Assembly (NCBI GenBank): GCA_964537195.1
Contig: CAZHYZ010000001.1
Span: 93,100 to 157,099 of the forward strand
Origin: an uncultured Methanosarcinales archaeon
GTDB taxonomy: Archaea > Nanobdellota > Nanobdellia > Woesearchaeales > GW2011-AR15
Length of the DNA: 64,000 nucleotides
Direction: 5' to 3'
Position 1 is the first letter of the stretch, and each line of letters starts with the position of its first letter. The position numbers and the translations under genes are program-made. The notes below the pieces were generated by a model. The model was not told the origin of the DNA. It ran no database searches and saw only the letters and a list, made by a program, of their open reading frames with translations. Below are positions 19,632 through 52,189 of the stretch, in pieces.

Positions 19632-20966
19632 CTATAATTCCAGCCTCTGGCCGTCATTCATCAAGTGGACAGTTTTACCAAGTTTGTAGCCCATTTCTTT
19701 GGCTAACTCAGCCATATGAACTGTTTTCTCAATGCTAGCATGGGCAGGTATTATGTGCTTAGGTTTAACCATGTTAATGAAATCTCTGTGGTCTTCTCTT
19801 GAGGCATGTCCACTCTGATGAATACCTCTGAAGATTCTAACTTTTGATAATTTTAAATTATTTTCCAAGGCCTGTCTGTTTGCTATATTTACCGGAGAAG
19901 GAATAACAGAGCATGAGAAAATCACATGATCCTGCTCAAACAACTTAAAACCAATTTTTTTATTTGCTATTTCCTGCAATACAGAACCGGGTTCACCTTG
20001 GTGTCCAGTACACACAACTATATATTTATCACGGCCTTCTTTCTCTATATCTCTTAATTTTTTCTTTACTTTACTCTTCCAAGGAATAATTTCAACATGT
20101 TTTGAGAAATCAACAAGACCAATATCTTCTGCAGCATATACATATTTGGCAAGGGATCTGCCCATAAACACAATTTTTCTCTTCATTTCTTTCCCAAAAT
20201 CTATTATGGATTTTAACCTGGCTATATGAGATGAAAAAGTAGTAACAATAACTGCTTTATTCTTTGAATCAATATTGAGCATAACATCTTTTAACATTTC
20301 TCTGGCTATGTTTTCAGAAGGCGTCTTTCTTGGTTTATAGGCATATAATGAATCTAGAATTAGAGCATTTACTTTTCCTTCCTTTCCTAACATCTTAATT
20401 CTCTCATAATCAGGTATAGGACCAAAGACAGGATTATTATCTAGTTTGAAATCATTTGCATAAACAACTTGGCCTTCAGGAGTATGGATAACAACAATTG
20501 CAGTATGTGGAATACTGTGTGTTACTGCAACAAATTCTACAGTCAAAAAATTTGATAGTTGTTTTTTCTGTCCATTTTCCAGAACTATGATTTCATTATG
20601 GAGAGCAATTTTATTATCTTTTAAGATTGCTTTTAGAACAGATGCAGTATATGGTGTACAAATAATTGGAGCATCATATTTTGCAGCCATATAAGGGATA
20701 GCACCAATATGATCAAGATGTGCATGGCTTGGTATTATGGCAAGTACTTTCTTTTTTATTTTATTAATTACAGAATCATTTGGAATAGCTCCTGCAATAG
20801 TCAAATCTCTCATAGTCAAATTGTCTTGTTCTTCTTCGTCTGTTAATTGTATGTAGCTTTCTAAATGAAGACCCATGTCTAATATGACTGCCTCTTTTTT
20901 ATATTGAATAGCAGTCATGTTCTTTCCAACTTCTGAATATCCGCCGATTGTTGTTATTTTTACCAT
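19632..20966 (-). CDS. rnj: Metallo-beta-lactamase / beta-CASP ribonuclease, archaeal RNase J-like
   Basis: ITTIGGYSEVGKNMTAI N-terminus and HAHLDH motif. 444 aa. Confidence 0.7.
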   Translation of the reverse strand: MVKITTIGGYSEVGKNMTAIQYKKEAVILDMGLHLESYIQLTDEEEQDNLTMRDLTIAGAIPNDSVINKIKKKVLAIIPSHAHLDHIGAIPYMAAKYDAPIICTPYTASVLKAILKDNKIALHNEIIVLENGQKKQLSNFLTVEFVAVTHSIPHTAIVVIHTPEGQVVYANDFKLDNNPVFGPIPDYERIKMLGKEGKVNALILDSLYAYKPRKTPSENIAREMLKDVMLNIDSKNKAVIVTTFSSHIARLKSIIDFGKEMKRKIVFMGRSLAKYVYAAEDIGLVDFSKHVEIIPWKSKVKKKLRDIEKEGRDKYIVVCTGHQGEPGSVLQEIANKKIGFKLFEQDHVIFSCSVIPSPVNIANRQALENNLKLSKVRIFRGIHQSGHASREDHRDFINMVKPKHIIPAHASIEKTVHMAELAKEMGYKLGKTVHLMNDGQRLEL

Positions 20967-22648: not shown

Positions 22649-23155
22649 TTATCCAAGTTTAAACCTTTTTACAACATTCCATTCTTCTGGAACATCTCCC
22701 CCAGTAACTAAATTTATTTCTTTTACTTTAAATTCTGCAGATATGTCTCCAAGTTTTTTCACAATTTCTTTCTTAATTTTTTCAGGAAAATCACCATACA
22801 ACAAACTTAGATGAGGGAGATACTCTCTTATATTGTAATTAATGAAAAGACCTCTTGCTTTTTTTGCTGCATTCATAATCTCAGGACTTTTTTCTGCTAA
22901 AGCAATGACACATCTGTAATAATCAAACATATATGATGCTTTAACAATCTTTAGATTAAACGGTTTAATCTTTTTGCTGAGTATTTCTGTTTTCTCAAAG
23001 ACATCCTCATCAGTTACAGAAGCTATTAAGGTTACATGTGGTTCAAACTTCGGAGCATTATATTTCTCAGCAAGATTATTAATTATTTTTTGGAATTTAT
23101 TAAAAATAGAACCATTGGGCATCAACCATAGTGAATGTATCATTTTTTCTTTCAT
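22649..23155 (-). CDS. 2H phosphoesterase family protein (2'-5' RNA ligase LigT / ThpR-like)
   Basis: Two H-x-T/S-x motifs (HVTL and HLSL) at the expected spacing. 168 aa. Confidence 0.6.
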   Translation of the reverse strand: MKEKMIHSLWLMPNGSIFNKFQKIINNLAEKYNAPKFEPHVTLIASVTDEDVFEKTEILSKKIKPFNLKIVKASYMFDYYRCVIALAEKSPEIMNAAKKARGLFINYNIREYLPHLSLLYGDFPEKIKKEIVKKLGDISAEFKVKEINLVTGGDVPEEWNVVKRFKLG

Positions 23156-24276: not shown

Positions 24277-24344
24277 TTTAAAAAATACGCGCCTGAGGAC
24301 AGCAGAAAAAAGTTTTCTTGGCCCTCAGTCGCTTCGCTTTGTTA

Positions 24345-24447
24345 CGCGCCTGAGGAGATTCGAACTCCCGGCCTTCACCTTAGGAGGGTGCTGCTCTTTT
24401 TGGCCCCCAAACAATGTTTGGAGGTATCCAAACTGAGCTACAGGCGC
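24345..24447 (-). tRNA. tRNA-Arg (anticodon CCU) with a ~28-nt non-canonical intron in the D-loop
   Basis: Hand fold of the minus strand gives acceptor GCGCCUG/CAGGCGC, T arm GGGAG-UUCGAAU-CUCCU, anticodon stem GCACC/GGUGA with loop CUCCUAA, and D stem GCUC...GAGC interrupted by ACCUCCAAACAUUGUUUGGGGGCCAAAA. No encoded CCA. Confidence 0.6.
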
Positions 24448-24603
24448 ATTTAAGATTAGCCAGGCCTCAGCTAACTCTCTTTCTCCCATAAAGGGACTAC
24501 TCCGAAGTATCCTCATCGGCCTGGTCATTAAAGGAAAAACATATACATTAAAAAAGTTTAGTAAAAGAAAAATATATAAAACATGTTTCTCTATGAAAAC
24601 ATA

Positions 24604-46248: not shown

Positions 46249-46824
46249 ATGATTGACAAAAAGATTTTTCCACAACTAAAAAAAGAGATAGAAGATCATG
46301 ATAATATCCGAGAAGAATTAATAGTAGAATCAAGACCTATATTACAGGAATCAAAGAAAGCAATTTATTCTATTCATAGAGGTAATCTAAAAAAAGCTAG
46401 ACAGATAATAAGAAAAGCAAAAAAACAACTTAAAAAATTAAACAAAAAAGCAAAAAACCCTAGCACGTTTACAGGAGCATATGACAATGCTTTACAAGAA
46501 TATGTTGAAGCAGTTACATATTATTGTTTTGTGAAAGAAAACAGATTAATGGGAAACAAAGAACTTGGTGTTGATGCTGAGAATTATCTTTTGGGCATTT
46601 GTGACTTAACTGGTGAGTTGGGCAGAAGAGCAGTTTTCTCTGTTGTAAATGAAGACTATGATAAAATACCTAAGATAAAAGAATTTGTGGAACAGATTTA
46701 TTACGAATTTTCACAGTTTGATTTTAAGAATGGACTTCTAAGAAAAAAAGCAGATTCAATCAAATATAACTTAAAGAAAATTGAAGAGATAATGTATGAT
46801 CTTAAGGTAAGGGATAAGATATGA
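46249..46824 (+). CDS. Translin-family protein (putative)
   Basis: YLLGICDLTGELGRRA and C-terminal LRKKADSIKYNLKKIEEIMYDLKVR resemble the translin signature blocks. Confidence 0.5.
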   Translation: MIDKKIFPQLKKEIEDHDNIREELIVESRPILQESKKAIYSIHRGNLKKARQIIRKAKKQLKKLNKKAKNPSTFTGAYDNALQEYVEAVTYYCFVKENRLMGNKELGVDAENYLLGICDLTGELGRRAVFSVVNEDYDKIPKIKEFVEQIYYEFSQFDFKNGLLRKKADSIKYNLKKIEEIMYDLKVRDKI

Positions 46825-48924: not shown

Positions 48925-48996
48925 GGCGGCCGTGGCGTAATGGTAGCGTAGAAGCCTGTGGAGCTTCAGGAGTGGGTTCGATTCCCGCCGGCCGCC
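48925..48996 (+). tRNA. tRNA-His (GUG) with a genomically encoded G-1
   Basis: Hand fold gives acceptor GCGGCCG/CGGCCGC, anticodon stem GAAGC/GCUUC with loop CUGUGGA, T arm GUGGG-UUCGAUU-CCCGC and discriminator C pairing with G-1. Followed by a T-run. Confidence 0.85.
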
Positions 48997-49016
48997 CTCA
49001 AGCTTTTTAGAAAATT

Positions 49017-50465: not shown

Positions 50466-50866
50466 AGAATACAAGAAAAGGAATAAGGTGGGGGATTTGT
50501 CATATTTACTCTTCATATAATAATACTATCATTCATATTACAGATATTACAGGCAGTGAGACAATTGCATTGTCTTCAGGTGGACAGATAGTAAAAGCAG
50601 ACAGATTAGAAAGTTCACCAACAGCAGCTATGGCTGCATCCAAAAAAGTTGCTGAGATAGCACTTGAGAAAGGAATTAATGGGATACATGTTAAGATTAA
50701 AGCTCCTGGAGGACATAATGGTCCAAGTAATCCGGGGCCTGGGGCACAAGCCGCTATAAGGGCCCTATCAAGAATGGGATTAAAGATTGGTATGATTGAA
50801 GATGTCACACCTGTTCCCCATGATGGTTGTAGAAAAAAAGGCGGAAGACGTGGAAGGAGGGTGTGA
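50462..50866 (+). CDS. rps11: 30S ribosomal protein S11 (uS11)
   Basis: [21 protein letters not shown]...[23 protein letters not shown]. Confidence 0.9.
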
Positions 50867-51639
50867 AAATGGTTGATTTTGAAGTTAAATCTCAGGAAGG
50901 AAACAAATTAAGCTTTTTTCTTATAGATAGCTCACCGGCATATAGCAATGCTCTGAGAAGAATAATGCTTAATGAAGTTCCAGTAATGGCAATTGAGGAT
51001 GTTGAGATTGTTAAGAACAGTTCTGCTTTATATGATGAGGTCATTGCACACAGATTAGGTTTACTACCACTTACAACAGATCTTAAATCTTATGAACTTC
51101 CCCAATCAGAGAAAGATATTGAAGAAAGAAAAGCAAAGTGTACTGTTCAAATGACTTTGAAAGCAAAAGGACCAAAAACAGTTTATGCTTCAGATTTAAA
51201 GACTGCAGATCCTAAAATAAAACCAGTTTATCCAGAAATGCCTATTGTCAAATTGCTTAAGGATCAAGAAATTGAGCTTTCTGCAATCGGAATACTTGGA
51301 AAAGGAAAGGACCACGCAAAATGGTCTCCTGGCCATGTTTGGTATAATTATAATCCAATTTTCAAAATAAATAATGCTAATATTGATAAATTTAAGGATA
51401 TGTATCCGGAACAAATTTTTGATAAGAAAGGAAAAATAGATGAAAAACTTATCCTAAAACATAATCTTACTGATGCTGTTGCTCATGTTAATGAGGAAAT
51501 CATCAAAGTAGATTATGATGATTCAACATATTTATTTTTTGTAGAAAGTTGGGGACAAATATCCCCAAAAGAGATTCTGACACAAGCCTGTGATGTTTTT
51601 GATGAAAGGCTTGAAGAAGTCAGAAAACTAATACCTTAA
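50863..51639 (+). CDS. rpoD: DNA-directed RNA polymerase subunit D (Rpo3)
   Basis: [47 protein letters not shown]. 258 aa. Confidence 0.85.
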
Positions 51640-51663
51640 ACAACCGCGTTAAGCTAACTTTAC

Positions 51664-51828
51664 GCGGGGGTGGCAGAGCCTGGTCAAATATTTAGAATAG
51701 ACCAAATGCGCAAGGTTGAGGTAACATAAATGTTTCAAACGCCTTGTCCCATAGAGGGTGCGCGTGTTCAAATATTGGCGCTTGTCGCTAATGCTTCGAA
51801 CGCCAGTGAGAAAGTCACGTCCCCCGCA
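51664..51828 (+). tRNA. tRNA-Leu (anticodon GAG) carrying apparently three introns (D-loop, canonical 37/38, T-loop)
   Basis: Acceptor GCGGGGG/CCCCCGC plus A73. Leu-type D-loop AGCCUGGUCAAA with an 18-nt insert. Anticodon stem CAAGG/CCUUG with UUGAGG followed by a ~19-nt insert. Variable arm CCC-AUAGA-GGG. T stem GCGUG/CACGU with GUUCAAAU followed by a ~42-nt hairpin insert. Mature length would be ~87 nt. Confidence 0.65.
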
Positions 51829-51841
51829 TATACTCACAAAA

Positions 51842-52189
51842 ATGAAAAATCAAAACTTGCAAAAACTAATAACTGAATTAAAGAAGACTTCCATAGAACA
51901 AAAAGTAAACTTATGGAAGCGTATTGCTTTAGAATTAGAAGGACCTACAAGCAAAAAACGTGTTGTTAATCTCAGCAAGATAAATAAATACTCAAACAAA
52001 GATGAAGTTGTGATTGTTCCAGGTAAAGTTTTATCAATGGGTGAGCTTGATAAGAAGATTACAATTGCTGCCCATAAATTTTCACAGACAGCATTTGAAA
52101 AAATCAACTCCTCAGGATCAAAAGCACTTACCATTGAAGAACTTTTAAAAGAAAATCCGAAAGGAGCAAAAGTGAGGATAATAGGCTAA
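51842..52189 (+). CDS. rpl18e: 50S ribosomal protein L18e (eL18). The ORF track's 5' extension from 51758 overlaps the tRNA and is rejected.
   Basis: MKNQNLQKLITELKKTSIEQKVNLWKRIALELEGPTSKKRVVNLSKINKY. Confidence 0.8.
   Translation: MKNQNLQKLITELKKTSIEQKVNLWKRIALELEGPTSKKRVVNLSKINKYSNKDEVVIVPGKVLSMGELDKKITIAAHKFSQTAFEKINSSGSKALTIEELLKENPKGAKVRIIG

Follow-up and report, generated by a model that had tools for sequence, protein, structure and literature searches.

Can a tRNA gene that is interrupted three times, and that default tRNA finders miss, give a working tRNA? The question is raised by a 165-nt segment at 51664-51828 (+) of the window, the 64,000-nt stretch of DNA analysed here. A sequence-only reading had taken this segment for a class II tRNA-Leu(GAG) gene with three introns, two of them non-canonical, bounded by the complementary strands GCGGGGG and CCCCCGC-A. 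The segment and its ends are as described, and ARAGORN on the spliced product, the orthologous genes and the bulge-helix-bulge (BHB) registers agree on the three introns. We put at about 90% the probability that this is a functional tRNA-Leu(GAG) gene of a Woesearchaeota-like DPANN archaeon, whose three introns would all be spliced via BHB motifs.

Gene anatomy and operon setting

The gene lies between rpoD, encoding RNA polymerase subunit D (50863-51639, +; Pfam RNA_pol_A_bac and RNA_pol_L), and the ribosomal protein L18e gene (51842-52189, +; Pfam Ribosomal_L18 / L27A), within the gene order S13-S4-S11-RpoD-L18e-L13-S9. The rpoD stop codon is followed by a 24-nt spacer, the tRNA gene, 13 nt and the L18e ATG. 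In the acceptor stem, GCGGGGG (51664-51670) pairs with CCCCCGC (51821-51827), the discriminator A follows at 51828, and CCA is not encoded. Such pairing alone proves nothing, because a scan for an acceptor stem plus TTCRA returned hundreds of chance pairs in the window (7-bp complementarity, 70-330 nt apart). The significance of the tRNA call comes from a product 84-86/86 identical to its orthologs and from BHB motifs in the correct register.

All four exons and three introns are read on the forward strand. Exon 1 (51664-51687, 24 nt) holds the acceptor 5' strand, the D-stem 5' strand and the D-loop as far as GGUCAA, and the same segment is identical in the L018, L019, L021, L027 and L028 genes of relatives. 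Intron 1 (51688-51705, 18 nt) lies in the D-loop at about position 21/22, and exon 2 (51706-51721, 16 nt) then supplies the D-stem 3' strand, the anticodon stem 5' strand and the loop to G37, with the anticodon GAG. Intron 2 (51722-51740, 19 nt) occupies the canonical position 37/38. Exon 3 (51741-51772, 32 nt) comprises position 38, the anticodon stem 3' strand, a 15-nt variable arm, the T-stem 5' strand and the T-loop UUCAAA; intron 3 (51773-51814, 42 nt) sits in the T-loop at 59/60; and exon 4 (51815-51828, 14 nt) ends the gene with U60, the T-stem 3' strand, the acceptor 3' strand and A73. Removal of the three inserts leaves the standard class II product that had been proposed, at 86 nt rather than about 87, and ARAGORN calls it tRNA-Leu(gag) with a long variable arm and discriminator A. 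The class II features are a 15-nt variable region with a CCC/GGG stem, the anticodon GAG and the A at 51828.

Other kinds of interrupted gene were also considered. A split or permuted tRNA gene was ruled out, the four exons being collinear and contiguous within 165 nt. Group I and group II self-splicing introns were ruled out at insert lengths of 18, 19 and 42 nt with no Rfam intron family at E<=10. Intron 3 was inspected for a C/D-box guide RNA, which was likewise ruled out: 42 nt is too short, and neither C nor D boxes are present.

Splice motifs of the three introns

The BHB geometry applied here is the standard one, a 4-bp central helix and one 3-nt bulge on each strand, with cleavage between the second and third nucleotides of the bulge. 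Folding at each junction, which had been suggested as a check, gives a drawable motif at all three introns, strict at intron 2 and relaxed at introns 1 and 3, and each intron has a BHB-type register that reproduces the intronless sequence. The boundaries of introns 1 and 2 come from this register test, and those of intron 3 from the register test, the minimum free energy (MFE) fold and a homologous intron in the relative L017.

Intron 2 has a strict hBHBh' motif with the outer helix CAAGG/CCUUG (at least 5 bp), the central helix UUGA/UCAA, which takes in the anticodon, and the inner helix AACA/UGUU (at least 4 bp). Its bulges are GG|U and AC|G and there is no sliding ambiguity, so the insert of about 19 nt proposed after position 37 stands as 51722-51740. 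Intron 1 has a relaxed HBh' motif in the register GGUCAA|A...GACCAA|A, with AA|A as each of its two bulges. G18 and G19 take part in the central helix GGUC/GACC, and UAUU pairs with AAUA in the inner helix. The 3' bulge lacks a stacked outer helix, and in its place there is a 6x3 loop closed by the D-stem. Intron 3 is a slightly relaxed BHB whose outer helix is the T-stem (GCGUG/CACGU), with a 3-nt 3' bulge AG|U. Its central helix UUC(A)/(A)GAA has 3 bp and an A.A mismatch, its 5' bulge AA|U is irregular, and the 8-bp inner hairpin has an inner helix offset by 1 nt. It is placed at 59/60, with cuts AA|U and AG|U, because in this register the T-stem closes a 3' bulge of 3 nt. The earlier lengths of 18 nt for the D-loop insert and about 42 nt for the third insert hold, whereas their boundaries had been set 1 nt too far to the right, and the third insert lies in the T-loop, not after it. 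The shifted boundaries give the same product because of flanking A/T repeats.

In the product-restoring register, the central helix is fully paired (4/4 bp) in 11 of 14 orthologous introns and has at least 3 bp in all 14, as compared to 3% and 19%, respectively, of random pseudo-introns of the same lengths drawn from the same sequences. In the MFE fold of the precursor, four stems (acceptor, anticodon, variable and T) are already formed, as is the intron-3 motif with its outer helix, 3-nt bulge, 3-bp helix and hairpin. When the fold is forced to all three BHBs plus the cloverleaf stems, its energy is -55.5 kcal/mol against -59.1 for the MFE, i.e. 3.6 kcal/mol higher. Counting against the proposed splicing are the lack of a stacked outer helix at intron 1 and, at intron 3, the central helix of 3 bp plus A.A and the irregular 5' bulge.

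Orthologous genes at the rpoD-L18e site

RpoD matches that carry names are assigned to 'Candidatus Woesearchaeota archaeon' or 'Nanoarchaeota archaeon', and the closest non-self matches are 65-72% identical; by its RpoD sequence, the host is a Woesearchaeota-like DPANN archaeon. Scans of genomes and metagenomes with RpoD yielded distant relatives only (identity at most 56%), and the closer relatives (65-72%) were obtained by protein search and contig look-ups. The position of a tRNA gene in the middle of a core ribosomal protein and RNA polymerase operon had been called notable. This did not hold up, because the relatives L001, L002, L004, L007 and L008 (RpoD 48-56% identical) have a tRNA-Leu(GAG), without introns, in the same rpoD-L18e spacer. 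On these sequences, with positional conservation checked within Woesearchaeota-like relatives, the position is ancestral to the group and not remarkable. The haloarchaeal 'alpha-operon equivalent' has a tRNA-Leu at the same place in its S13-S4-S11-RpoD-L18e-L13-S9 cluster, and to our knowledge the haloarchaeal tRNA-Leu genes between rpoD and L18e are intronless.

The orthologous genes carry 0-3 introns each, at five positions overall (19/20, 21/22, 29/30, 37/38 and 59/60). L016, L023/24 and L026 have none. A single intron is found in L019, L021/22, L025 and L027 (D-loop, about 21/22) and in L028/29 (29/30), and two introns in L017 (19/20 and 59/60), L018 (19/20 and 37/38) and L015, a Leu(UAA) gene (21/22 and 37/38). 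The window gene has three (21/22, 37/38 and 59/60). Thus, the intron-1 site is empty in L016, L026 and L028 and filled in L015, L019, L021, L025 and L027; the intron-2 position is also filled in L018 and L015; and L017 has the homologous 59/60 intron, with a compensatory G:C to A:U change in the inner helix relative to the window. At 21/22 the intron strand varies (GACC, GACU, GGCC, GGCU) with pairing retained, and in L015 an exon U to C change is compensated by an A to G change in the intron.

The mature tRNA barely changes across these genes. The spliced window product matches spliced L028 at 86/86 positions, spliced L018 at 85/86 and intronless L016 and L026 at 84/86, and the mature tRNA is 81-86/86 identical among close Leu(GAG) orthologs (RpoD 69-71% identical). 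The exons are undamaged, although little or none of the insert sequence is shared with the relatives. A search for the 5' exon in viral contigs found nothing.

Further variation was seen around the site. L015 carries at 1017-1266 a tRNA-Leu(UAA) in place of the syntenic Leu(GAG); its first 26 nt are near-identical to the GAG genes (the same as intronless L026) and its variable and T arms differ, which suggests, from the sequence, isoacceptor replacement or recombination within the gene. Some more distant relatives (L003, L005, L006, L009-L011) have no tRNA at the site: rpoD is directly followed by the L18e gene in L003, and by the L13 gene, with no L18e gene between, in L005 and L006. A leader motif, GGCTCACACTC, is conserved between the rpoD stop and the tRNA (5-20 nt upstream) in L019, L021, L025, L026 and L027; the window has a degenerate form at 51640-51663, AAGCTAACTTTAC, and the motif may be a processing or regulatory signal. 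The distance from the rpoD stop to the tRNA is 2-24 nt in most loci (74 nt in L017), and that from the tRNA to the L18e ATG is 7-40 nt in most loci (142 nt in L018). In L028 (2017-2135), these distances are only 2 nt before the tRNA and 7 nt after it. Because of this packing, tRNA end-processing would punctuate the operon transcript, often leaving L18e with a very short leader.

Visibility to tRNA finders

The gene was expected to defeat default tRNA finders, and it does. ARAGORN on the whole window, in default and -i intron modes, missed the unspliced tRNA-Leu and made a single call, a tRNA-His at 48926-48997. The intron options suggested as a check therefore failed on the unspliced gene, while the same program called the in-silico spliced product Leu(gag). 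The same holds across the relatives: ARAGORN missed all of the interrupted genes and recognised each ortholog once it had been spliced in silico. Rfam gave no match at the tRNA-Leu locus at the gathering threshold or at E<=10 (51500-52000 and the whole window); its permissive by-products were weak chance snoRNA-like matches inside rpoD and a partial tRNA match that led to a tRNA-Arg gene. With permissive filters, intronless L016 scores 48.5 bits on the Rfam tRNA model RF00005 (threshold 29). With default speed filters at the gathering threshold, even the intronless class II tRNA-Leu genes of L016, L026 and L007 are missed, so routine cmscan runs can lose even uninterrupted class II tRNA-Leu orthologs.

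Because the tRNA gene is missed, spurious open reading frames are drawn over it. These include a GTG-extended L18e ORF (51758-52189, +) and an antisense 62-aa ORF (51649-51837, -), and the public Logan annotation calls a 48-aa gene at L013 943-1089 that overlaps the tRNA-Leu.

tRNA-Arg(CCT) and other window features

The window has three tRNA genes with four introns, three of which are non-canonical. The third gene, tRNA-Arg(CCT) at 24345-24447 (-), is found by ARAGORN only after in-silico splicing and has only a partial 22.7-bit match in Rfam. Its 28-nt intron (24398-24425, -) is non-canonical and lies in the D-loop, with a perfect motif: central helix TTGG/CCAA, bulges AT|A and AA|A and a 9-bp inner helix. 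Since this gene also has a non-canonical intron, the organism needs to splice such introns anyway. In addition, 22% of the Leu codons in 15 confident genes are CUU or CUC; together with the tRNA-Arg(CCT) D-loop intron, this argues both that the tRNA-Leu gene is needed and that splicing capacity exists.

Several elements lie beside tRNA-Arg(CCT). At 24289-24345 (-), an exact 11-nt copy of its 3' end (CCTCAGGCGCG) occurs 46 nt downstream of the gene and forms a hairpin with an internal CTGAGGG, with a T-run after each copy. The possibility that the repeat flanks another intron was rejected, as no BHB register exists; it may be a terminator hairpin, or an integration or duplication remnant at the tRNA 3' end. 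Just upstream of the gene, at about 24465-24530 (-), a 7-bp terminal stem CCAGGCC/GGCCUGG encloses GAUGAGG...CUGA. In sequence this element resembles a C/D-box or K-turn, and it has no Rfam match.

Genes for RNA metabolism in the window include an RNase J / beta-CASP nuclease (19632-20966, -), a 2H phosphoesterase of the CPDase/LigT-like type (22652-23155, -) and a Translin-family protein (46249-46824, +). The 2H phosphoesterase family acts on 2',3'-cyclic phosphate RNA ends. Among about 53 window ORFs scanned, no Pfam match to the splicing endonuclease EndA (tRNA_int_endo) or to RtcB was found.

Alternative explanations

The locus could be a tRNA pseudogene, an intact tRNA-Leu inactivated by three random insertions that leave no working tRNA. 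Rejection by default finders and the imperfect motifs of introns 1 and 3 fit this explanation. Against it, the exons match the orthologs at 84-86 of 86 positions, in contrast to inserts that have little or no sequence in common with their counterparts in relatives. Each insert also has a helix-bulge motif whose register is exactly the one needed to restore the tRNA, as occurs in about 3% of random pseudo-introns. Further, the insertion sites recur in several relatives with compensatory changes, and the syntenic copy is intronless and clearly functional in other relatives. We regard a pseudogene as very unlikely. An assembly or chimera artefact, in which the inserts are mis-assembled sequence in a metagenome bin, has in its favour that the contig is metagenome-assembled. 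It is made unlikely by an independent Logan assembly of run SRR7048221 (L013), which is identical to the window over 1852 nt with all three inserts included; relatives from other samples also carry introns at the same sites, and we give this explanation practically no weight.

A different possibility is that EndA removes the 37/38 intron only, and that the D- and T-loop inserts are kept or are removed otherwise, by another nuclease or by stepwise folding after prior intron removal. Intron 2 alone has a strict hBHBh' motif, and relaxed D-loop motifs are poorly cut by strict EndA types (PMC5829648). Against this, a tRNA that kept the 18-nt D-loop insert and the 42-nt T-loop insert would lose the elbow formed by G18/G19 and the T-loop, and both inserts pair with exactly those nucleotides as central helices, with 3-nt bulges rightly spaced. 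Moreover, non-canonical sites are filled in many orthologs and in tRNA-Arg of the same window, which argues for routine splicing capacity. That EndA removes intron 2 alone is very unlikely, and splicing of all three introns via BHB motifs is the reading adopted below.

Proposed maturation

Transcription of the tRNA-Leu is probably shared with the S13-S4-S11-RpoD-L18e-L13-S9 operon. In the 165-nt precursor, each insert would fold into its BHB, strict at intron 2 and relaxed at introns 1 and 3, giving EndA six cleavage sites within the paired 3-nt bulges. The four exons left by these cuts would be sealed by an RtcB-type ligase. Processing of the ends would fall to RNase P and RNase Z and would at the same time generate the 5' terminus of the L18e-L13-S9 message, with CCA supplied last. 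The predicted outcome is an 86-nt class II tRNA reading CUU and CUC.

The earlier suggestion that a relaxed-specificity endonuclease is needed is plausible for introns 1 and 3. From the form of their motifs, these two introns should be poor substrates for a strict alpha4 or alpha'2 EndA. The alpha'2 EndA of A. fulgidus failed on a D-loop HBh' intron, and broad-specificity EndAs are required for relaxed motifs, the tested example being the M. kandleri tRNA-Glu D-loop HBh' intron (PMC5829648).

Comparison with known archaeal intron systems

Archaeal tRNA genes are known to have up to three introns per gene (PMC8450103), and the catalogued non-canonical positions include 20/21, 22/23, 29/30 and 59/60 (PMC4090602). 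Multi-intron tRNAs of Thermoproteales and other Crenarchaeota, e.g. Pyrobaculum calidifontis, are described by Sugahara et al. (2007/2008), as cited in PMC4090602 and PMC8450103. As in those lineages, the genes studied here have up to three BHB-type introns, at the canonical 37/38 and at non-canonical sites, with strict and relaxed motifs; the positions are of the same kind (such as 20/21, 22/23, 29/30 and 59/60), and introns come and go between close relatives. Unlike the hyperthermophilic crenarchaea, the host is a mesophilic-looking DPANN archaeon with 33% GC, and its introns are short and AU-rich. Its EndA is probably not the (alpha-beta)2 type with the crenarchaeal loop. Also in contrast to Thermoproteales and Crenarchaeota, no trace of intron transposition was seen in the window or the loci, where blastn with the four window introns found no second copies.

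The statement that multi-intron genes are known mainly from Thermoproteales and a few other archaea needs qualification for this host, which is not a member of Thermoproteales but of DPANN, where tRNA disruption has already been reported (PMC5829648). A DPANN survey that included one Woesearchaeota MAG linked alpha4 EndAs with an L3 loop to increased tRNA disruption; the L3 loop occurs in diverse DPANN lineages, with L3-bearing alpha4 EndAs in several of them (PMC5829648). The authors of the survey noted that incomplete tRNA sets imply undetected disrupted genes, and the window gene is exactly such a gene. The survey gives per-genome counts and contains neither this locus, nor the three-intron Leu gene, nor the five sites at one orthologous gene; in the literature searched, we found no description of a five-site series at one orthologous locus. 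ARMAN-2 and Micrarchaeum, of the same superphylum, likewise have non-canonical and multiple introns, with an epsilon2 EndA (PMC3239211, PMC3488258).

The closest experimental parallel discussed here is the Methanopyrus kandleri pre-tRNA-Glu(UUC), which has a relaxed HBh' D-loop intron beside a strict 37/38 intron and is an experimentally studied model of how EndA types differ on such a substrate (PMC5829648). The tRNA-Leu differs from it in isotype and in having three introns, not two; cleavage was tested in vitro in the M. kandleri case and is proposed from sequence here.

Implications for DPANN genomes and tRNA-intron evolution

Multi-intron archaeal tRNAs, with a maximum of three introns, and DPANN tRNA disruption are already described, and no new mechanism is revealed here. 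What the locus contributes is a well-documented DPANN example with three introns, the most known for one gene. Since this gene goes unseen by ARAGORN and Rfam, tRNA-Leu(GAG) will seem to be missing from genomes of the lineage, as will tRNA-Arg(CCT), and hidden tRNAs of this kind distort completeness and decoding estimates for DPANN MAGs. Further, orthologs without introns and orthologs interrupted in different ways make up a clean series for comparison at one syntenic locus, from which intron gains and losses could be dated and set against the type of endonuclease.

The occurrence of five sites and 0-3 introns at one syntenic gene with a near-invariant mature tRNA, together with the intron load of the window tRNAs, leads us to propose, tentatively and at slightly less than even odds, that this Woesearchaeota clade is in a burst of tRNA-intron gain and loss like that of Thermoproteales. 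The literature on related lineages suggests that the endonuclease would be of the alpha4 type with an added loop. If both are true, the clade would offer a second natural system, mesophilic and independent of the first, for BHB-intron acquisition, in which one could ask whether enzyme specificity or intron load changes first.
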